This document shows, piece after piece, positions 12,024 through 19,505 of a stretch of DNA of 32,000 bases; position 1 is the first letter of the stretch; each line of letters starts with the position of its first letter. The DNA is from Methanothermobacter thermautotrophicus str. Delta H (lineage in GTDB: Archaea > Methanobacteriota > Methanobacteria > Methanobacteriales > Methanothermobacteraceae): NCBI RefSeq assembly GCF_000008645.1, contig NC_000916.1, positions 1,110,001-1,142,000 of the forward strand, read 5' to 3'. The translations under genes and the position numbers were made by a program. Below the pieces are notes generated by a model, which saw only the letters and a list, made by a program, of their open reading frames with translations, was not told where the DNA came from and made no database searches.

Positions 12024-12842
12024 TCAATAATCAGTCATTTCAGGGTATGAACCCAGAATCTTGAAGAATGGGGTCCTATCAGATATACTCCTGAGTATGT
12101 CCATTACATGCGGGTCCTTCCGGTGCCCCTGGAAATCCACAAAGAATATGTACTTGCCAAGACCCCTCTTTGATGGGCGGGACTCTATCTTGGTGAGGTT
12201 GACTCCCGCATCTGCGAAGAAGCCCAGGATCTCATGGAGTCCCCCTGGTTTATCCTCTGATAGTGAGAAGACTATGGAGGTCTTATCCCTTCCTGTTGGT
12301 TCATGGTCACCCTCTGAAAGGACTATGAACCTTGTGAAGTTGGGGTCAAAGTCCTGGATGTTCTCTGCAATCACCTCGAGGCCATATATATCCGCAGCCC
12401 TTCTCGTTCCTATGGCCGCGCACTCCCTCCTCCCCATTATGGTCCTTGCAGCTGCAGCCGTGCTTGGTGTTGAGTGTGTTGAGACCCCAAGTTTCTCCAG
12501 AAATCCTCTGCACTGTGCAAGGGACTGGGGATGGGAGTAGACCTCCCGGATCTCATTCAGGGAGACACCCCTGTTAACGAGGAGGTTGTGCCTTACACGG
12601 AGTATTATCTCCCCCTCTATGCAGAGATCATATTCCCAGGCAAGGAGGTCAAGGGTGACCCCCACCGGGCCCTCTATTGAGTTTTCGATAGGTACAACAC
12701 CCCTTGAGGCCACTCCGGTTGCCACTGCGCCCAGCACCTCGAGTATTGAGTCGAAGGGGATGAGTTCCTCACCGACCCTCCGGGCTGCCTCCTCTGTGAA
12801 TGTCCCCTCAGGGCCCAGATAGGCTATGGGAAGAGATCTCAG
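12024..12842 (-). CDS. pheA: Prephenate dehydratase with a C-terminal ACT domain; non-canonical start (CTG 12842 or ATA 12827)
   Basis: TRF (NFTRFIVL) and ESRP (LTKIESRPSK) motifs are present. The conserved N-terminus IAYLGPEGTFTEEAA is encoded at 12825-12781, upstream of the first ATG/GTG/TTG (GTG 12737). The frame opens only at 12854. Confidence 0.85.
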   Translation of the reverse strand: MRSLPIAYLGPEGTFTEEAARRVGEELIPFDSILEVLGAVATGVASRGVVPIENSIEGPVGVTLDLLAWEYDLCIEGEIILRVRHNLLVNRGVSLNEIREVYSHPQSLAQCRGFLEKLGVSTHSTPSTAAAARTIMGRRECAAIGTRRAADIYGLEVIAENIQDFDPNFTRFIVLSEGDHEPTGRDKTSIVFSLSEDKPGGLHEILGFFADAGVNLTKIESRPSKRGLGKYIFFVDFQGHRKDPHVMDILRSISDRTPFFKILGSYPEMTDY

Positions 12843-13984
12843 TAGAGACCCCCCTTAAGGTAGTTGTTTATCCTGTCTGTTGTTGACTGATAGAATCGCC
12901 TTATGGTTGCCCTGCCGTCACGGTAATCTGCAAGGGTGGCTGAGACCCCCAGACGGACAAGGTGACGTATGAATTCCTCTGCCGCCTCCCGGTCCTCAAC
13001 GTCGATGACCGTGTCCTCATAGGCTGCCTCACCAGCTGATATGCTCTTTATCCTCTCAAGCATGGGGTATATTATTGCCTCCCCGAGGCGGCGTGCCCTT
13101 TCACGGGTTTCATCATCCGATTCATCGAGTTCATAGGCCTGGAAGCCCTCCCTTATGACTCTGCTGAAGAAGAAGGGTCTTCCGAAGTCGAAGGGGTAGC
13201 TGAAGGCGTATGCGAGTTCACGTGCATGGGCCTGTGATGAGGTGTACTTGAGGGGAGGCACCTCCATGCTGGGGTCCTTCATAACCACACCCTCCCTTCC
13301 AGCCATTCCCAGGGCCCTTATTATATCCGCGACCTCACTGGCGGCCTCCTCAATGGGGTAGACCCCAAAGAGGCGCACATTAGGAAGTCCATAGGAATCC
13401 AGGAGCGCCCTCCTCTCTTCAACAGGGAGGGGTCTGTTCGTGTTCTTCTCCCTCAGATCGAATACCCTGAATCCGAGGGGTCCGACCTCAGGGTAGTCCT
13501 GTGAAACATAGGGGTTGTCCCTTCCAATCATCTCTCCACATATAACAAGGTCCGGGTGTTCCCTGAAGAATTCAGAAAGGTCAAGGAGCTCCTGGGCCTT
13601 TCGGGTGGTGAATGGGCAGACATGGCCCCCCCTTGTGAGTGCAACGGTTTCTCCCGATGATAGGCATGCTATACGGACATTGTAGCCGTTCATCTTTTCC
13701 TCTACAGCAACCCTGTCCCTGAAGTGTTCCTGGATGGTGGGTGAGAGTAGCAGTGTCCTCCTTATCTTTGGAAATCCCCTTATGACCTCAGTTTCATCTC
13801 CAAGGTAGATCACCGTCCCTGCCTCCAGGTCCCCCAGGGGCTTCTTGAAGAGGAGGGCCTGCATACCCGCAGATTCAAGTAGCCTCAGGCTCCCCCGGGC
13901 AAATGCAACCTTTAACCTGGAGGATGGTACTCCTGTCCTTTCCTGGATCAGATCGAAGGGGATGTCACTGTTCATTGAATTCAC
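12839..13984 (-). CDS. ATP-dependent RNA ligase (Rnl3/Pab1020 family)
   Basis: The ORF is 381 aa from GTG 13984. The nucleotidyl-transferase motif I lysine sits in VEEKMNGYNVR. Length and motif match my memory of the characterised M. thermautotrophicus RNA ligase MthRnl. Confidence 0.88.
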   Translation of the reverse strand: MNSMNSDIPFDLIQERTGVPSSRLKVAFARGSLRLLESAGMQALLFKKPLGDLEAGTVIYLGDETEVIRGFPKIRRTLLLSPTIQEHFRDRVAVEEKMNGYNVRIACLSSGETVALTRGGHVCPFTTRKAQELLDLSEFFREHPDLVICGEMIGRDNPYVSQDYPEVGPLGFRVFDLREKNTNRPLPVEERRALLDSYGLPNVRLFGVYPIEEAASEVADIIRALGMAGREGVVMKDPSMEVPPLKYTSSQAHARELAYAFSYPFDFGRPFFFSRVIREGFQAYELDESDDETRERARRLGEAIIYPMLERIKSISAGEAAYEDTVIDVEDREAAEEFIRHLVRLGVSATLADYRDGRATIRRFYQSTTDRINNYLKGGLY

Positions 13985-13996
13985 TTGAGACGTCTT

Positions 13997-14004
13997 AAAA
14001 AAAA
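13997..14004 (-). terminator. T8 tract in the 26-nt spacer between the last CBS gene and the RNA ligase gene (possible attenuating terminator)
   Basis: The minus strand reads CCTCCTTTTTTTTAAGACGTCTCAA-GTG. No SD-like sequence precedes the ligase GTG. Confidence 0.25.
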
Positions 14005-14010
14005 GGAGGT

Positions 14011-14829
14011 TTAGAAGACACCCTCTATCTCAACTATGAGGTCAAGGATGTCTGTCTTCGTTACTATACCCTCAACTTCCTGTTTGATTACAGGGAATCC
14101 CCCGTAGCCTGTCTCCAGCATGAGTGATGCCACTTCAGTTACCGGAGTCTCCTCCTCAATGGTCCTCACGTTCTGTTTCATTATATCCTCCACGAGGAGG
14201 TTTCTTATCCTTGAGGGTTTGTGCCTGTCCGGGACGAGCTTTCTGAAGTTTATGACGGCCCTTGTCATGTCCCTGGCTGTGAGTATTCCTGCAAGTTCGT
14301 CCTCCTCCATGACCAGCAGGCGGCCTATGCCTGCGTCGATCATTATCCTCCTTGCATGGACGACCCTCTCTGCCGGGGACACCGTTATCATCTCTGTGCT
14401 CATGACATCGGCTGCAGTGTACTTCTCATAGGCCCTTCCCCTGCAGATGTCAAGGAGGTCTGATTTTGTGACTATACCCATGATTTCACCGTCATGGAGA
14501 ACCGGAAGGCTTCCGATGTTGTTTTCGAGCATTACGCTTGCTGCGTTTCCGGCGTCCATGTCTGGCTCTGCGGTTATGAGTTCCGGTGTCATGACCGTTG
14601 AGACATGGAAGTGGGAGGGTGCCATGTTGCCGTACCTTGAGGATCCGAGTTTGAGTGCTATGTCCTTCTCGGTAACTATACCAACAAGTTCCCTCTCATG
14701 GTCGCTGTTGGTGTTTATAACGAGGAGCCTTGAGACGTTCCTTTTATCCATGAGTCTCAGGGCGTCACATATGTTCTGATCCTTATCGATGCAGACAGGA
14801 TCCTCTGACATGATGTTTTTGATTATCAT
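14011..14829 (-). CDS. CBS-domain-only protein (4 CBS motifs, two Bateman modules), paralogue 5 of 5 in transcription order
   Basis: Four h-x-x-h-M-(T/S)...G(I/L)(V/L)T..D(I/L/M) units are present. I place the start at ATG 14829, preceded by GGTGG-N5. The upstream stop codon ends at 14839. Confidence 0.85.
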   Translation of the reverse strand: MIIKNIMSEDPVCIDKDQNICDALRLMDKRNVSRLLVINTNSDHERELVGIVTEKDIALKLGSSRYGNMAPSHFHVSTVMTPELITAEPDMDAGNAASVMLENNIGSLPVLHDGEIMGIVTKSDLLDICRGRAYEKYTAADVMSTEMITVSPAERVVHARRIMIDAGIGRLLVMEEDELAGILTARDMTRAVINFRKLVPDRHKPSRIRNLLVEDIMKQNVRTIEEETPVTEVASLMLETGYGGFPVIKQEVEGIVTKTDILDLIVEIEGVF

Positions 14830-14838
14830 ACTCTCCAC

Positions 14839-15684
14839 CTACTGGATTCCGCTTATTATATCTGTTTTTGTTATTATCCCCACCAGTTCATCGTCCTCAA
14901 CCACTGGAAGGCCGCTTATACCGTTTTCAAGCATCATGGCTGCTGCGCTGGATGCATCCACAGATGGTTCCACCTTTATCACGTCCTCAGTCATTATGTC
15001 CCCTGCTGTTAGCATCGCGATGGTACGGACCCTTTTCTTCTCCTCTGAGGTTCTGCTTATGAAGTAGACCCTCTCGACGGGTATGCCCCTCTCAGGGTCC
15101 TCGAAGGTTGCGAATGAGAGGTTCTCTGAGGTTATTATCCCCTCAACTGCGCCGTTATCTGTTACGACCACCCTTGAGATGTTGTTCTCCTCCATGACGC
15201 CTATCACATGGGACAGTGTGTGGTTGGGTGTCACCGTTTTAACGTCCTCTGTCATGAGGTCCCTCACCTTCCATCTGCCGGCGCATCTGTCCTTGAAGAA
15301 CCTGAGAAGGTCCTTCTTGGTTACTATGCCTGCAAGTTCCTCTCCATCCATTACAAGGAGGGACCCCACATTCTTCCTGAGCATGAGCTCCGCTGCATCC
15401 CTGGGGGTGTCATTAACATTCACGGTTACGGGGTTCTCTGTCATCACCCTCCTTATGGAGATCTTATCTATTGGTCTCCTCCTCCAGTCGGGGCCGTTAA
15501 CCCGGAGTTTTCTGGTTATATCGGTCTCAGTCACTATGCCGACCGGTTTACCATCTGCATCAACAACCACGACCCTGCTTATCCCGTGTCTCAGCATGAG
15601 GTTCCTTGCATAGGCAACCTGCTGTGTCTCATCCATGACGATGACTTCATCTGTCATTATGCTCCCTATATCCACTGTAACCAC
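14839..15684 (-). CDS. CBS-domain-only protein (4 CBS motifs), paralogue 4 of 5
   Basis: The protein has four CBS units. The stop of the upstream gene (15685-15687) directly abuts GTG 15684. An alternative start is GTG 15675 behind AGGTGG. Confidence 0.85.
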   Translation of the reverse strand: MVTVDIGSIMTDEVIVMDETQQVAYARNLMLRHGISRVVVVDADGKPVGIVTETDITRKLRVNGPDWRRRPIDKISIRRVMTENPVTVNVNDTPRDAAELMLRKNVGSLLVMDGEELAGIVTKKDLLRFFKDRCAGRWKVRDLMTEDVKTVTPNHTLSHVIGVMEENNISRVVVTDNGAVEGIITSENLSFATFEDPERGIPVERVYFISRTSEEKKRVRTIAMLTAGDIMTEDVIKVEPSVDASSAAAMMLENGISGLPVVEDDELVGIITKTDIISGIQ

Positions 15685-16626
15685 CTACCCTGCTATTGCC
15701 CTCAGTAAGTCGCTTTCAGTTATTATTCCTGTCAGTTCCCCGTAGTCCACCACGGGAAGTCCTCCTATTCCATGTTCCTCCATGAGCTCACATACCCTTC
15801 CTAGGGGTGTTGTGGATGTTACCATGCAGACCTGTGTCTCCATGATCTCGTTTACAGGTGTTGAGAGGACCTCCTCGGCACTGTTGGTTTTCATTGCACT
15901 GAAGGCCTGGTTCCTTCCAAGGAACTCGAGTATGTCAGTGGATGTCACTATCCCGACAAGTTTTTCCTCCTCAGGGTGTGGAGTTTTTCTCTCCTCGCCA
16001 AGAACAGGTATCCTCCTTAGCCTGTTCCTCACCATTATCTTTGAGGCGCCCTCTATGGGTGTTCCTGGTGTTGTGCTTATCACATCTGCTGTCATGTGCT
16101 CCTCTGTCACCTCATCATTGAATACTCCTGCCATGAGAAGCACGAAGTCCCTCTCAGATACTATGCCGGCTATCTTCTCGTCATCATCAACTACCGGTAG
16201 TGCGCCGACGCTGTTCTCAAGCATCATGCTCACTGCATCTGCAATTGAGTCCCTGGTGGTTATGCTGATGACGTCCCGGGTCATGATACTTTTAACGGGT
16301 TCGTTGACAGCTGCAAGGAAGTTATCATCATATTTTTTATCGATGATCTTGGATTTATCTCCCCCTCCTAAAAAGTCCAGGATATCCATGGCCGTGACTA
16401 TCCCCTGGAGCTTACCTGTCCCGGGGTTTGTTATTGGAAGCCTCCTGAATTTGTTCTTAACCATTATCTCCGCTGCTTCTTTGATGGTGGCTGTCTGTGG
16501 TATGGAAATAACTTCCTTCCTGGCGATGGCCATCACATCGCCTTCATGGTCGAAGTTTCTGCTCTCGAATTCGACGGGACCACGGTCCCTAGACTTTACC
16601 AGGTTTATGGTGTCTTTTTTTCTCAT
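15685..16626 (-). CDS. CBS-domain-only protein (4 CBS motifs) with a ~35-aa N-terminal extension, paralogue 3 of 5
   Basis: The protein has four CBS units. ATG 16626 is preceded by GAGAGGTGTGTAA. A 120-bp AT-rich spacer lies upstream. Confidence 0.88.
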   Translation of the reverse strand: MRKKDTINLVKSRDRGPVEFESRNFDHEGDVMAIARKEVISIPQTATIKEAAEIMVKNKFRRLPITNPGTGKLQGIVTAMDILDFLGGGDKSKIIDKKYDDNFLAAVNEPVKSIMTRDVISITTRDSIADAVSMMLENSVGALPVVDDDEKIAGIVSERDFVLLMAGVFNDEVTEEHMTADVISTTPGTPIEGASKIMVRNRLRRIPVLGEERKTPHPEEEKLVGIVTSTDILEFLGRNQAFSAMKTNSAEEVLSTPVNEIMETQVCMVTSTTPLGRVCELMEEHGIGGLPVVDYGELTGIITESDLLRAIAG

Positions 16627-16746
16627 TTACACACCTCTCTGGGAGATATACTTACATGAAGTAAGTATCGTTATTACTTAAAATAATTTTATTAATAAAA
16701 ACTGGGTTCTGGATGATGGGTCCTTCTCTTATCATGGGCCACCATT

Positions 16747-17565
16747 TCACTTGATGTAGGCTTTGAGGACGTCCTCCCTGGAGACTATGCCCAGAAGATC
16801 GGCTTCCTTCACCATGCTGGGGTCACTCTTTATGAACACCGGCTTCTCAACCACGGGGATCCTGCCGATGTCCCTCTCCAGCATCAGAAAAGCAGCTTTT
16901 TCAGAAGGCGTATCTGGTGTTATGGCTATGGGTGGTGTCTTCATTATCTTCTCAACCGCCACTGATCTCACATCCCCGGACTCCCTGTGAATCCTGGCAT
17001 GGCCGTACCTTATGAGGTCCTTCCTTGTTATGATACCTATCAGTTTGCCGTTCTTCATCACCGGAAGCCCTGAAAATCCTGATTCATCCATCTTATCCCA
17101 TACAGCTGATACAGGGTCGCTGTGCTGGCAGGTGACAGGTTCAGGTGTCATTATCTCCATCACAGGACTCTTAACTGGTTCATATCCCTTTTCAAGGAAC
17201 CCTGAAATGAAGTCTATGGTACTGACTATCCCGACAAGTTTCATGCTCTCTGTTGACTCAACCACCGGGGCCTGTATTTCACCCGCCCTCACCAGGTCGG
17301 CTGCAGCCTTCATTGCCTCCATTTCAGGGGTCAGGATAAGCTTGGGCCTTTCCATTATTCCCCTTGCCTCAAGGTTGGACTTTGTCGCTGTGATGTTAAG
17401 CACATCACCCCGGGTTATAATACCTCTCAGTTTTTCCCCGGCGACTACAGGGACGCACCTGAAATCCTCATCCCTTAAAATAGATCTTACTCTTGTGGCG
17501 GCGGTTTCAAGTGAGACTGAGACAGGATTTAATGTCATTACGTCTCTTACAAACAAATCATTCAC
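16747..17565 (-). CDS. CBS-domain-only protein (4 CBS motifs), paralogue 2 of 5
   Basis: The protein has four CBS units. GTG 17565 overlaps the upstream stop codon (GTGAATGA). Confidence 0.85.
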
Positions 17566-18121
17566 CCTCTAAGTCCTCTTTACACTCCTCACATATGTAT
17601 TTACCGTCGTACTCCTCAAGGTACTCCTCAAAGTTGCCGCAAATCTCACAGACACCTGGAACTGACCTCTCATTTTCAGGTAGCTGTACCCTGTTCTCCT
17701 CAATCCTTGCATTCTCAACAAGGATCTCTGTGAGTTCCGGGGCCACCATCATGACGTCGGAGGATGTCAGGATCCCGACGAGCGCGCCGTCCCTGACCAC
17801 CGGAAGCCTCCTTATGCTGTTCTTGGCCATCAGCCTCGCTGCTTCGCTGAGCTCCCTGTCAGGTTCTATGCTTATAAGGTTGCGGGTCATTACCTCCCCC
17901 ACTGTAACCTCACTGGCCCGCAGGTCTCTGGAAACAACCTTCCTTATGATGTCGCTCTCGGTGATGAGTCCCTCTGGTTCGGAGTTGCTCTTGACGATGA
18001 TGCTTCCAACCTTCTTTTCGGTCATTATTGATGCTGCTTCTGCAACGCTGATGCCAGGGTCTGCTGTTATAACATTCGATGTCATGGCATCATGGACTGT
18101 AACCTTTGTTTCCATTTCCAT
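17558..18121 (-). CDS. CBS pair fused to a C-terminal Cys4 zinc ribbon, paralogue 1 of 5
   Basis: Two CBS units are followed by [26 protein letters not shown] 18121 is preceded by the strong SD AGGAGGT-N6. Confidence 0.88.
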
Positions 18122-18132
18122 CTGAAAACCTC

Positions 18133-18876
18133 CTACCTAAGGCCAAGGGCCCTATGCATCTGTGGTATCACGTAAACATCCATATACTTTCCGGCTTCCT
18201 GAGACATTTCCAGCAGGCGAGGAGTGTTTTGAGCCCACTGCTCAGGGGGACTGCATGGCTGTATAACCAATGGAAGTCTTTCCGGCTCATCAACGCATTC
18301 AAGGAGCCTCTCTGCGAGAGCCCCGATGTAGCCAGCCCCCGTTGTGGGCATCACAACCACCTTACAATATGTATTTACACCTCTTGATATTAATATGTTT
18401 ATGACTTGAATCTCCCGATCAATGAGGTCACCGGGGCTGGATATATCGGATTCTGTAGTACCTGATCTTAAATTATCTGAAAAATGTTCAGCTATTTTTA
18501 TATCAACTGAGGCGTAGTCAAAGAGGTGAGCTATCCTCTCTGCATTGCTGGGCAGGGACCCGTTGGTCTCGAGAAGGGTCCTGTGAGGGCTCTCCTCAAG
18601 GAGTTCTGTGATAAAATCAGGGTAGAGGAGAGGTTCACCTCCTGTGATACTGATTGAATGAAAATCAGGCGTTATCAACCCTTCAATAATCTCTGTAAGT
18701 TCAGGGGCTGTGAAGAGCCTCCCGGCTGAGGGGTCCCTGCTCTCTGGTGTGTCACAGTAGCTGCAGTTGAGGTTGCAGCCGGCGAACCTCACAAAGATCT
18801 GCCTCCTTCCCACAAGGAGGCCCTCGCCCTGGATGCTGCTGAAGACCTCCACGATGGGTGCCCTCATCAAGATCAC
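18133..18876 (-). CDS. queE: 7-carboxy-7-deazaguanine synthase (radical SAM)
   Basis: Motifs include SIQGEG and the CX3CX2C cluster [13 protein letters not shown] 18876 overlaps the queD stop codon (GTGA). Confidence 0.88.
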
Positions 18877-19352
18877 CGGGATATCGTGTATATGGCCCCC
18901 TGCCCTATACCCTCATTCACACAGACCTCGACGGAGGATATATCATACTTACTGCTCAGTTCCTTGAAGAGGGTTGCGGCAAAGTACCTTGAAAGCTCCT
19001 CTGCAGAGCTGGATTCAAGGTCCATGAGGCAGCAGTCCTCCTCGGGTATGCTGTACTTCTTACCCGCTATTTCAAATTTAACTGTTCTGGTGGTAGATGT
19101 GAAGTTTATGAGGGGGTTCCTGAGGGGTATCAGGAGTTTATGGTCAAATTCGCTGCATATTCGTCTGACTATATCCTTAACATCCTTGAAGTCAGCTACA
19201 AAACCATGCTTACCGCTCCTCTTACCCTCAACCTTAACATCAACTATGTAGGAGTGACCGTGTATGCAGCCGCATGACTCATGTTCGGGTATCATGTGGG
19301 CGGCTGAAAACCTCAGGTTTGCGTGTATTCCATTTATAACTATCTTCATCAT
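18873..19352 (-). CDS. queD: 6-carboxy-5,6,7,8-tetrahydropterin synthase (PTPS family)
   Basis: The motif CGCIHGHSY (Cys plus His triad), a size of ~160 aa and adjacency to queE support the call. The start could be ATG 19352, ATG 19349 or GTG 19358. Confidence 0.85.
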
Positions 19353-19397
19353 TACCACTTCAACTGTTGAATGGGGACCCGGGTAGCCTATCCTGAA

Positions 19398-19505
19398 ACA
19401 CCTTAAAAGATCCGGGTCCTGGCCATATCCTCAGACACACCAGTATCCAGACACCAGCAGCATCCCCCCGACACCTTAAAAGATCCGGGTCTTGGCTATA
19501 TCCTC
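19398..19505. repeat. 35-bp direct repeat (19398-19432 and 19471-19505, 33/35 identical, period 73 bp); copy 2 is the real 3' end of the DUF366 gene
   Basis: ACACCTTAAAAGATCCGGGTCCTGGCCATATCCTC versus ACACCTTAAAAGATCCGGGTCTTGGCTATATCCTC. On the minus strand these encode EDMARTRIF* and EDIAKTRIF*. Confidence 0.9.

Follow-up and report, generated by a model that had tools for sequence, protein, structure and literature searches.

SriA-D of Methanosarcina acetivorans are ribosome-hibernation factors, named Sri for single ribosomal subunit inhibitors and encoded in the operon MA4648-MA4651 (Nissley et al., Nat Commun 2026, PMC13454478). According to the data statement of that paper, PDB entries 9ZNF, 9ZNG and 9ZNI are the 70S-SriA-SriB, 70S-SriD and 70S-SriC-SriD complexes, respectively (PMC13454478). 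SriA and SriB block the A and P sites, the peptidyl-transferase centre and the exit tunnel of the large subunit, and SriC and SriD block the P/E and A sites of the small subunit (PMC13454478). The sites of SriA and SriD overlap (PMC13454478), and therefore the SriA-SriB and SriC-SriD pairs sit on different ribosomes. The commonest sri arrangement is A-B-C-D, in 529 species, sri and hibA are reported to be anticorrelated, and further proteins may regulate Sri binding (PMC13454478). The same work describes Dri, the dual ribosomal subunit inhibitor, whose N-lobe is resembled by SriA and whose C-lobe is resembled by SriC, and HibA/AHA, a SriA-like module fused to HPF/RaiA (PMC13454478). In Methanolobus, ARC-P/ARC-A stay ribosome-bound with AMP and come off with ATP (preprint, Zhu et al., bioRxiv 10.64898/2026.01.19.700304); ARC-P and ARC-A are equated with SriC and SriD by Nissley et al. 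(PMC13454478). In Ta0289 of Thermoplasma acidophilum, a Zn-ribbon/rubredoxin-like domain is joined to a CBS pair (PDB 1PVM and 2QH1; Proudfoot et al., J Mol Biol 2008).

We analysed a 32,000-nucleotide window of the Methanothermobacter thermautotrophicus str. Delta H genome (NC_000916.1, positions 1,110,001 to 1,142,000). The initial annotation described five tandem CBS-only genes with 18 motifs, the first with a Cys4 ribbon, and this description agrees with both the reading frames and Pfam. Five co-directional ORFs occupy the minus strand from 14011 to 18121 (Table 1), and CBS (PF00571) is the sole Pfam domain in all five products, in 2, 4, 4, 4 and 4 stretches (E-values from 2e-29 to 5e-60). 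The total of 18 CBS motifs (2+4+4+4+4) is well above chance. It was also stated that no function is assigned to such an array, which is now outdated, the function having been published in 2026 (PMC13454478).

Table 1. Features of the CBS array and its flanks, in order of transcription; positions are those of the window.
Feature	Position	Strand	Length	Description
queD	18873..19358	-		domain search; adjoins queE-like gene
queE-like radical-SAM gene	18133..18876	-		best matches all QueE models
gene 1 (P1)	17558..18121	-	187 aa	2 CBS (Pfam) + C-terminal C4 ribbon
gene 2, sriA orthologue	16747..17565	-	272 aa	4 CBS (Pfam)
sriA/sriB spacer	16627..16746	-	120 nt	sole real spacer of the array
gene 3, sriB orthologue	15685..16626	-	313 aa	4 CBS + basic N-terminal extension
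gene 4, sriC orthologue (= ARC-P)	14839..15684	-	281 aa	4 CBS (Pfam)
gene 5, sriD orthologue (= ARC-A)	14011..14838	-	275 aa	4 CBS (Pfam)
Rnl3-type ATP-dependent RNA ligase (MthRnl)	12839..13984	-	381 aa	TIGR01209 519 bits, PF09414, PF18330

Genes 2-5 each match a different solved Sri chain. The best PDB match of gene 2 is 9znf_4 (SriA, 2e-35; next Sri chain 2e-11), the best Sri chain for gene 3 is 9znf_5 (SriB, 2e-74; next 3e-18) and for gene 4 it is 9zni_6 (SriC, 1.5e-44; next 7e-20), and gene 5 matches 9zng_7/9zni_7 best (SriD, 1.4e-41; next Sri chain 1e-24). For all four genes the own chain is thus ahead of any other Sri chain by at least 17 orders of magnitude, subfamilies being assigned here from a matrix of best hits to the solved chains, where the published classification used subtrees (PMC13454478). 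The alignments are full-length and colinear, covering residues 5-279 of gene 4 against 9zni_6 and residues 3-270 (268 residues) of gene 5 against the SriD chain, in which the basic segment FRKLVPDRHKPSRIRNLLV is conserved.

Several of the features that distinguish Sri proteins are found in the same four genes. Each product has four tandem CBS stretches and no other Pfam domain, each falls to one specific subfamily in the best-hit matrix, and the order sriA-sriB-sriC-sriD is clustered in the window and in loci from four of the phylum's families. Across the phylum, a first set of 13 loci preserves the cluster in 11, and a set of 80 in about 70. Gene 3 carries the SriB-type extension ahead of CBS1, about 30 basic residues (MRKKDTINLVKSRDRG...) that are conserved in nine orthologues and kept across the order. 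Gene 4 carries the positively charged small-subunit-binding loop of SriC: the WRRRPID loop is conserved, and the insertion between CBS3 and CBS4, which matches that of 9zni_6 in length within 3 residues, appears to be the beta-hairpin extension. No other Sri-like protein was found in the genome, the sole other 4-CBS protein reaching at most 74 bits. HPF/RaiA (PF02482) is absent from the whole genome, which fits the published sri/hibA anticorrelation.

Three identities other than Sri were rejected. The matches to HhpR (NF053603) score 40-71 bits against a curated cut-off of 520; HibA/AHA does not apply, as Pfam finds no HPF/RaiA domain in any of the five proteins; and the two 4xCBS lobes of Dri are not in one polypeptide here, the ORFs being separate, 272-313 aa long and with stops between them.

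We conclude, with a probability of about 0.88, that genes 2-5 constitute a ribosome-hibernation cluster, sriA-sriB-sriC-sriD, in this Methanothermobacter, with the mechanism of the orthologues and the local readings given below. Domain content, one-to-one orthology, gene order, the SriB tail, the SriC basic loop and the conservation of the cluster are direct observations; by analogy, the proteins would bind the Methanothermobacter ribosome in the same manner as their orthologues. The array is largely explained in this way, and gene 1 and the RNA ligase gene stay outside the explanation.

By orthology, hibernation would set in when energy is limiting and translation stalls. SriA would fill the A and P tRNA sites of the large subunit, and the basic N-terminal tail of SriB would thread past SriA into the peptidyl-transferase centre and the exit tunnel. 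On separate ribosomes, SriD would lie in the small-subunit A site, the mRNA channel and the decoding centre, with SriC beside it in the P/E sites, sequestering the 3' end of 16S rRNA. Ribosomes would be silenced and shielded from nucleases, which would shorten the lag at regrowth. The CBS pockets would sense the adenylate state, AMP holding the proteins in place and ATP releasing them, as the preprint describes for the SriC/SriD orthologues. The orthologues from which ribosome binding is extrapolated are 35-55% identical and come from another phylum; the source of the AMP/ATP switch is a preprint, and it concerns SriC/D of Methanolobus only. Compared with M. acetivorans SriB, the tail lacks about 30 residues here and may reach less far down the tunnel.

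The initial annotation had proposed that these proteins, lacking an effector domain, act in trans, and this is borne out by the orthologues, which work as the hetero-pairs SriA-SriB and SriC-SriD on the ribosome. Its suggestion of ligand sensing stands, as a reading of the adenylate state, for the SriC/SriD orthologues at least, again on the preprint. A single assembly of all five proteins does not agree with the overlapping SriA and SriD sites, which place the pairs on different ribosomes.

It had further been suggested that the CBS proteins are trans-acting regulators of QueE (7-deazaguanine synthesis), of the RNA ligase, or of both. The neighbourhood does have something to offer here: synteny across the phylum extends over the entire string DUF366-queD-queE-gene1-sriABCD-rnl-pheA, rnl follows sriD in 75 of 80 loci, and rnl and sriA share a pattern of presence and absence by genus: of 28 genera, the 15 with sriA are those in which rnl was found, and rnl was not found in the 13 lacking sriA. 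The ligase, MTH1221, is a 381-residue enzyme that circularises RNA (PMC2577357). However, pheA and an unrelated membrane protein are equally syntenic, so that adjacency alone proves little. Reduced clusters lose rnl and keep queD-queE beside sriB-sriD, and the sri operon of M. acetivorans works with no ligase mentioned (PMC13454478). Since the demonstrated target of the orthologues is the ribosome, regulation of either flanking enzyme is very improbable. Hardly any weight, and the least of all, falls on an older reading derived from MJ1225, by which the 4-CBS proteins would be generic AMPK-gamma-like energy sensors, or on their being DNA-binding regulators of the HhpR type, named after the transcriptional activator of Pyrococcus yayanosii that consists of four CBS domains only (PMC11705074). 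Weak NCBIfam HhpR matches are present and gene 3 matches MJ1225 at 1e-60, but each protein is far closer to a specific Sri chain, and MJ1225 itself falls within the SriB lineage, as a tail-less “SriB-short” type.

The packing of the Sri genes is tight. The 8-nt overlap of gene 1 with sriA (GTGAATGA, 17558-17565) and the single 120-nt spacer at 16627-16746, both reported earlier, were confirmed in the sequence. The zero-nucleotide junctions reported at 15684/15685 and 14838/14839 hold only with the longest possible ORFs. At both, a Shine-Dalgarno-like AGGTGG spans the upstream TAG, and a second start codon follows 9 nt downstream (GTG 15675 in gene 4 and ATG 14829 in gene 5). The alignment to M. 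acetivorans SriC begins at residue 5, in keeping with the downstream GTG; this GTG is the probable true start of gene 4, and ATG 14829 is a possible true start of gene 5. Tight packing is therefore retained, with spacers at these in-frame later starts that are probably 9 nt instead of 0.

The spacer between sriA and sriB contains a T5 run, an A/T-rich TATA-like block, a palindrome (ATACTTAC-N5-GTAAGTAT at 16648-16668, unique in the genome) and the Shine-Dalgarno sequence GAGAGGTG. A block of 57 nt within it is identical in five Methanothermobacter species. Of 72 related loci, 67 have a T-run of at least 5 in this spacer, compared with 17/76, 16/76 and 19/75 at the other junctions (21-25%); promoter and terminator calls were made by eye and from T-run counts, with no dedicated archaeal model. 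We infer from the conserved T-run and the conserved block that the spacer acts as a terminator and as an internal promoter/operator for sriB, and that the array would form two units, queD-queE-gene1-sriA and sriB-sriC-sriD-rnl. A break at this position would part sriA from its binding partner sriB, with which it shares one mRNA in M. acetivorans, so that regulation would differ between the two organisms. The queE stop and the ATG of gene 1 are just 11 nt apart, with AGGAGGT in between (median gap 11 nt in 65 loci), and queD and the queE-like gene, which scores below the NCBIfam QueE equivalog cut-offs, are therefore probably co-transcribed with gene 1 and sriA.

Gene 1 begins with a CBS pair and ends with a C4 ribbon, the build of Ta0289-type proteins, and it has full-length structural likeness to 1PVM/2QH1. 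Its AF2 model (pLDDT 92.9; linker helix at 128-145, three strands at 154-176) aligns with Ta0289 in Foldseek over 174 columns (TM 0.61-0.65, probability 1.0, 26% identity), with an rmsd of 11 Å that reflects a different domain orientation; by sequence the CBS part alone matches (E 7e-12). Across 70 family representatives, all below 50% pairwise identity, the ribbon cysteines (C158-x2-C161 ... C177-x2-C180) never vary. Of the T/D ribose-binding pairs, D57 is invariant and T54 and D122 are conserved in at least 90% of these representatives. The protein has a pI of 4.5. With a net charge of -10 over the 35 residues of the ribbon (family median -5), nucleic-acid binding through the ribbon is unlikely, and the earlier proposal of a zinc-ribbon member acting on nucleic acid is not favoured. 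Gene 1 appears to combine a CBS pair that binds nucleotides with an acidic ribbon that binds metal, and is predicted to be translationally coupled to sriA. As a candidate it is probably a Sri accessory, e.g. a regulator or holder of SriA, rather than a nucleic-acid binder.

Tentatively, and at somewhat less than even odds, gene 1 may be a fifth Sri component, a nucleotide-sensing CBS-pair dimer that controls when the Sri proteins engage the ribosome; with similar reserve, its acidic ribbon might bind SriA or the basic ribosome-binding elements of the Sri proteins, which would extend the best explanation. The overlap with sriA is typical (median gap -8 nt in 70 loci), the ribose-binding pairs are conserved, and no other protein of the string is as well conserved as that of gene 1 (median identity 68%, against 53% for SriA). 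The published work allows for added proteins that regulate Sri binding, and in M. acetivorans the dual-CBS gene MA4647 lies immediately upstream of sriA, although no reads connect it with the sri operon (PMC13454478). Outside the phylum, three of nine full-length family members, in unrelated metagenome loci, are directly upstream of a Sri gene: in L102 and L104 the relative precedes a SriA-like gene, with gaps of 8 nt and 1 nt, and in L103 it is followed by SriC-like and then SriD-like genes. The neighbours in the other six loci are unrelated (Toprim, UbiD/UbiA, Mut7-C/AMMECR1 and proteasome genes). Genus g10 retains gene 1 without sriA, but gene 1 diverges there to 36-38% identity, a bigger drop than that of SriB or SriD. 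Gene 1 is also absent from the published cryo-EM maps, whose reconstitutions did not include it. It is only slightly less likely that gene 1 is instead an independent sensor of metal/redox or adenylate state with an unrelated target, its adjacency to sriA being operon history. Its architecture is that of Ta0289, whose crystal structure is described as a CBS-rubredoxin-like protein with Fe2+ bound (2QH1) and whose iron binding is cited in PMC7521041, and members of the family occur in many archaeal lineages, next to varied genes. Arguments against an unrelated target are the translational coupling to sriA, kept in four families of the phylum, and the Sri pairing that recurs in unrelated metagenome loci.

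Compared with the known systems, Dri and HibA/AHA share with this locus the CBS-based occlusion of ribosomal sites; the lobes of Dri are separate genes here, and the HPF/RaiA domain of HibA/AHA has no counterpart in this genome. MJ1225 of Methanocaldococcus jannaschii (3KH5/3LFZ) matches gene 3 over residues 31-310, but begins at the first CBS motif, whereas gene 3 has its basic, conserved tail. Ta0289 and gene 1 share a three-part build of CBS pair, helical linker and C4 ribbon, and differ in sequence and in the relative orientation of the domains in the model. The Methanolobus ARC consists of two 4xCBS proteins that form a complex on the small subunit; it has basic “occlusion elements”, CBS pockets occupied by AMP, and release driven by ATP. 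In CBS1, the SriD orthologue here keeps a T-x-x-D pair whose Asp is replaced by Gly in M. acetivorans SriD and by Asn in ARC-A (preprint, bioRxiv 10.64898/2026.01.19.700304), so that the set of occupied nucleotide sites may differ. M. acetivorans sriABCD differs in its longer SriB tail (homology begins at residue 46 there and at residue 16 here), in its single mRNA as opposed to the apparent terminator/promoter-like split between sriA and sriB, in an upstream CBS-pair gene that is transcribed separately instead of overlapping sriA, and in that the paper mentions no ligase (PMC13454478), where an Rnl3 gene follows sriD here. Both organisms nevertheless encode, in identical gene order, four separate 4xCBS proteins with one-to-one colinear matches, both have the N-terminal tail of SriB and the basic loop and insertion of SriC, and in both a dual-CBS gene lies directly upstream.

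The five minus-strand open reading frames that the initial annotation had described as encoding only CBS motifs (2, 4, 4, 4 and 4 in transcription order) were recovered at the same coordinates by an ORF and Pfam check, with CBS stretches alone found in each of them by Pfam (E-values 2e-29 to 5e-60). NCBIfam returned sub-threshold matches of the five to CBS-bearing families, and no equivalog was found there. In a PDB sequence search, genes 2, 3 and 4 each have a single outstanding full-length match (9znf_4, 2e-35; 9znf_5, 2e-74; and 9zni_6, 1.5e-44, respectively), and gene 5 has its outstanding full-length match in 9zng_7/9zni_7 (about 1e-41), while cross-matches to the other Sri chains all fall at 1e-11 to 1e-25. 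The entries carrying the matching chains 4-7, 9ZNF, 9ZNG and 9ZNI, are the 70S-SriA-SriB, 70S-SriD and 70S-SriC-SriD structures of Methanosarcina acetivorans (data statement, Nissley et al., Nat Commun 2026, PMC13454478). Given these one-to-one chain matches and the entry names in that paper, genes 2-5 are sriA, sriB, sriC and sriD, arranged in the commonest sri gene order, reported from 529 species (PMC13454478). The array belongs to a ribosome-hibernation family published in 2026, and is not a system without an assigned function, as had been thought (PMC13454478). Of the initial interpretation, the trans-acting, paired and adenylate-sensing nature of the proteins stands, but their target was named wrongly.

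No further Sri-like protein was found in the source genome (1,751,377 bp, one contig), and neither was an HPF/RaiA domain, which fits the anticorrelation of sri and hibA reported in PMC13454478. The only other protein of this genome with four CBS motifs and nothing else (284 aa; G000:C1:903428-904252, outside the window) scores at most 74 bits against any Sri. The SriB orthologue carries a conserved basic tail (~30 residues) ahead of CBS1, the SriC orthologue retains WRRRPID and has a CBS3-CBS4 insertion equal in length, within 3 residues, to that of M. acetivorans SriC, and the SriD orthologue has 268 residues colinear with M. acetivorans SriD, plus a conserved basic segment.

The mechanism is taken from the published work, from which we infer that of M. 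thermautotrophicus. [quoted passage not shown] As the SriA and SriD sites overlap, the SriA-SriB and SriC-SriD pairs belong to different ribosomes, and deletion of the sri operon results in a longer lag after long stationary phase and in depletion of the small subunit (PMC13454478). A preprint on the Methanolobus SriC/SriD orthologues, ARC-P/ARC-A, describes three AMP in the CBS pockets and release triggered by ATP. In M. thermautotrophicus, SriA would similarly lie in the A/P sites of the large subunit with the SriB tail entering the peptidyl-transferase centre and tunnel, as in M. acetivorans, and SriD and SriC would occupy the A and P/E sites of the small subunit on separate ribosomes.

Features of the sri locus (window coordinates) and median gap to the next gene of the string in the loci of the best 80 of 281 matches
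Feature	Coordinates	Strand	Median gap to next gene (nt)
Repeated DUF366 gene end	19398-19505		
queD-queE	18133-19358	-	11 (queE to gene 1)
gene 1	17558-18121	-	-8 (to sriA)
sriA (gene 2)	16747-17565	-	141 (to sriB)
sriA-sriB spacer	16627-16746		
Palindrome	16648-16668		
sriB (gene 3)	15685-16626	-	46 (to sriC)
sriC (gene 4)	14839-15684	-	42 (to sriD)
Second sriC start, GTG	15675	-	
sriD (gene 5)	14011-14838	-	39 (to rnl)
Second sriD start, ATG	14829	-	
sriD-rnl spacer with T9 run	13985-14010		
rnl	12839-13984	-	
pheA	12024-12854		

The sole long gap in the array is the 120-nt spacer between sriA and sriB. Gene 1 and sriA overlap by 8 nt (GAG GGT GAA TGA / GTG AAT GAT). The sriB/sriC and sriC/sriD junctions, previously read as having no spacer at all, do abut when the longest ORFs are taken, but at both there is a second start 9 nt downstream. 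Both read TAG-GTG-G and contain AGGTGG, which resembles a Shine-Dalgarno motif and overlaps the stop codon. For gene 4 the downstream start is favoured, since the alignment with M. acetivorans SriC begins at residue 5.

The string DUF366-queD-queE-gene1-sriA-sriB-sriC-sriD-rnl-pheA-(membrane protein) is conserved in four families of the phylum. Of 13 loci picked by hand, 11 have it unbroken, as does the 1.2-Mb genome G021, which alone represents a fourth family. The stretch from DUF366 to pheA is intact in 57 of another 80 named loci, all from Methanobacteriaceae and corresponding to the best 80 of 281 matches from a scan of genome contigs with the SriB alignment; contig ends cut most of the others. 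Linkage was tested inside Methanobacteriota and in nine metagenome loci, with one class covered by the phylum-level genome search. At the two ends of the string in the window, the longest prephenate dehydratase ORF with a canonical start (pheA) has 237 aa, versus 268-297 aa in relatives, its conserved N-terminus apparently being without an ATG, GTG or TTG start, and the DUF366 gene has its final ~30 nt and stop repeated ~73 nt downstream in the spacer before queD (GAGGATAT(A/G)GCCA(A/G)GACCCGGATCTTTTAAGGTGT).

Runs of five or more T are an archaeal termination signal. Such runs are present in 67 of 72 sriA-sriB spacers of related loci, and in 17/76, 16/76 and 19/75 spacers at the next three junctions (sriB-sriC, sriC-sriD and sriD-rnl). 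The spacer in the window has first a T5 run, then a TATA-like block rich in A/T, next the palindrome ATACTTAC-N5-GTAAGTAT, and last GAGAGGTG-N7-ATG. Over the 3' 57 nt of the spacer there is complete identity among five Methanothermobacter species, the proteins of which differ by 10-18%, and the rest of the spacer diverges. On these sequence features we infer two transcription units, which would be queD-queE-gene1-sriA and sriB-sriC-sriD-rnl, the first predicted to end at the T5 run and the second to start ~45 nt ahead of the sriB ATG; a literature search found no Methanothermobacter expression data for the array genes. The palindrome, which is perfect, unique in the genome and located inside the 57-nt block between the TATA-like block and the sriB ribosome-binding site, is better regarded as a candidate DNA operator. 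The corresponding RNA hairpin is weak (-11 kcal/mol, z -1.6) and A/U-rich, in a thermophilic host. A sigma-70-type promoter scan of the window was disregarded, the host being an archaeon. The T9 run begins 7 nt past the sriD stop and 12-20 nt ahead of the rnl start, and is a possible terminator that, with T-runs in the minority of sriD-rnl spacers noted here, would be specific to M. thermautotrophicus.

Many full-length relatives of gene 1 (170-215 aa) were retrieved in a search of 1.84 billion representatives, the named members coming from Thermococci, Thermoplasmatales and Woesearchaeota MAGs. An ESM Atlas search returned clusters from Methanobacteriota alone, and matches to a profile of the family alignment are dominated by proteins with four CBS motifs. 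Across 70 aligned sequences, the four Cys (CEIC...CEEC at the C-terminus of gene 1), G51, D57 and G116 are invariant, and T54 and D122, which with D57 belong to the usual ribose-binding T/D pairs, are found in at least 90%. AF2 models the protein with high confidence (pLDDT 92.9). The protein has a pI of 4.5 and its ribbon segment a net charge of -10 (family median -5), an acidity that argues against the suggestion that the zinc ribbon acts on nucleic acid.

Of 151 sampled genomes from the phylum, 78 have sriA and 79 have rnl; both genes were found in the identical 15 of 28 genera, and full-length gene 1 in the same 15 plus genus g10. Such co-occurrence by genus is weak statistical evidence, as the genera without these genes may be one clade, and perhaps only one or two losses are involved. 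Three architectures are seen, namely the full cluster, queE-gene1-sriB-sriD-pheA and queE-sriB-sriD-pheA. The second is found in g10 (L182-L184), where sriA, sriC and rnl are absent and gene 1 has diverged strongly, down to 36-38% identity, with SriB at 45-47% and SriD at 40-42%; the third, with gene 1, sriA, sriC and rnl lost, is found in genera g6 and g7, in loci L020 (G015) and L021 (G017), and, among named Methanobrevibacter, in loci L100 and L101. The basic tail of SriB is retained in the reduced clusters. This natural reduction series, from the full cluster to gene1-sriB-sriD and then sriB-sriD, suggests that SriB and SriD may be the minimal hibernation set.

It is possible, although we give it only about a three in ten chance, that two members of the Sri system in Methanobacteriota have gone unreported, an adenylate-sensing gate for SriA (gene 1) and an RNA-end-sealing ligase (Rnl3). 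The gene 1 protein, translationally coupled to SriA, would be a sensor of adenylates, and perhaps also of metal or redox state, and would gate the loading of SriA or SriA-SriB onto large subunits. In favour of a link between gene 1 and Sri, the gene 1 protein has the highest conservation in the string (median identity 68%, compared to 53-57% for SriA, SriC, SriD and Rnl, in the loci of the best 80 of 281 matches), and an overlap of 8 nt with sriA is the median across the family. Of nine full-length relatives from a metagenome scan that started from P0237, a distant Thermococci-type member of the family, three lie directly upstream of a Sri gene: two precede SriA-like genes (152 vs 81 bits and 199 vs 82 bits), and one precedes a SriC-like and then a SriD-like gene. 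Against the link, the other six have unrelated neighbours, and in M. acetivorans a dual-CBS gene upstream of the sri operon is transcribed separately (PMC13454478). Nissley et al. consider that unknown proteins may regulate Sri binding (PMC13454478). Directly upstream of one metagenomic pair of gene 1 and SriA-like genes is a same-strand open frame exceeding 2,600 codons (L102:2-7945).

The ligase, for its part, would be co-transcribed with sriB-sriC-sriD and would seal or circularise RNA ends during dormancy. The window protein (381 aa) equals MthRnl/MTH1221 in length and family, and MthRnl circularises single-stranded RNA (PMC2577357). Circular 23S rRNA may resist exonucleases, and the paper suggesting this makes no mention of a ligase (PMC13454478). 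Protection of RNA ends by Rnl3 in dormancy is put forward purely as a hypothesis. In two or three genera (G071:C10:23579-24769, G110:C3:77209-78399 and G111:C16:10667-11476) the Rnl3 match is split into residues 12-112 and 108-381 within a 471-aa open frame, suggesting an insertion of about 70-90 residues in those ligases.

The main value of the analysis is a correction, in that an apparent 18-motif CBS "sensor" turns out to be the apparatus for ribosome hibernation in a classic model methanogen, and proper names can now replace the decades-old gene annotations "IMP dehydrogenase-related" and "CBS domain-containing". M. thermautotrophicus is thermophilic, used industrially for power-to-methane conversion and genetically tractable, so the way in which it parks ribosomes during H2 starvation is of practical interest. 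The locus retains its interest through gene 1, the ligase and the proposed split of the operon, and three leads reach further than the 2026 papers: a conserved fifth gene coupled to sriA, an RNA ligase retained or lost along with sriA and sriC, and the reduction series to sriB-sriD, including the named Methanobrevibacter loci. If the extended system with gene 1 and Rnl3 is real, the locus would be a combined module that plugs the ribosome and protects the RNA.

Among known systems, the sole solved structure that aligns to the gene 1 model over the full 174 columns is Ta0289 of Thermoplasma acidophilum (1PVM; also 2QH1, "CBS-rubredoxin-like protein, Fe2+-bound"). MJ1225 matches the window SriB at 1e-60 but is without its tail, and the tail of M. 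acetivorans SriB is ~30 residues longer than that in the window. M. acetivorans has a single sriABCD mRNA, unlike the two transcription units proposed here for M. thermautotrophicus (PMC13454478).
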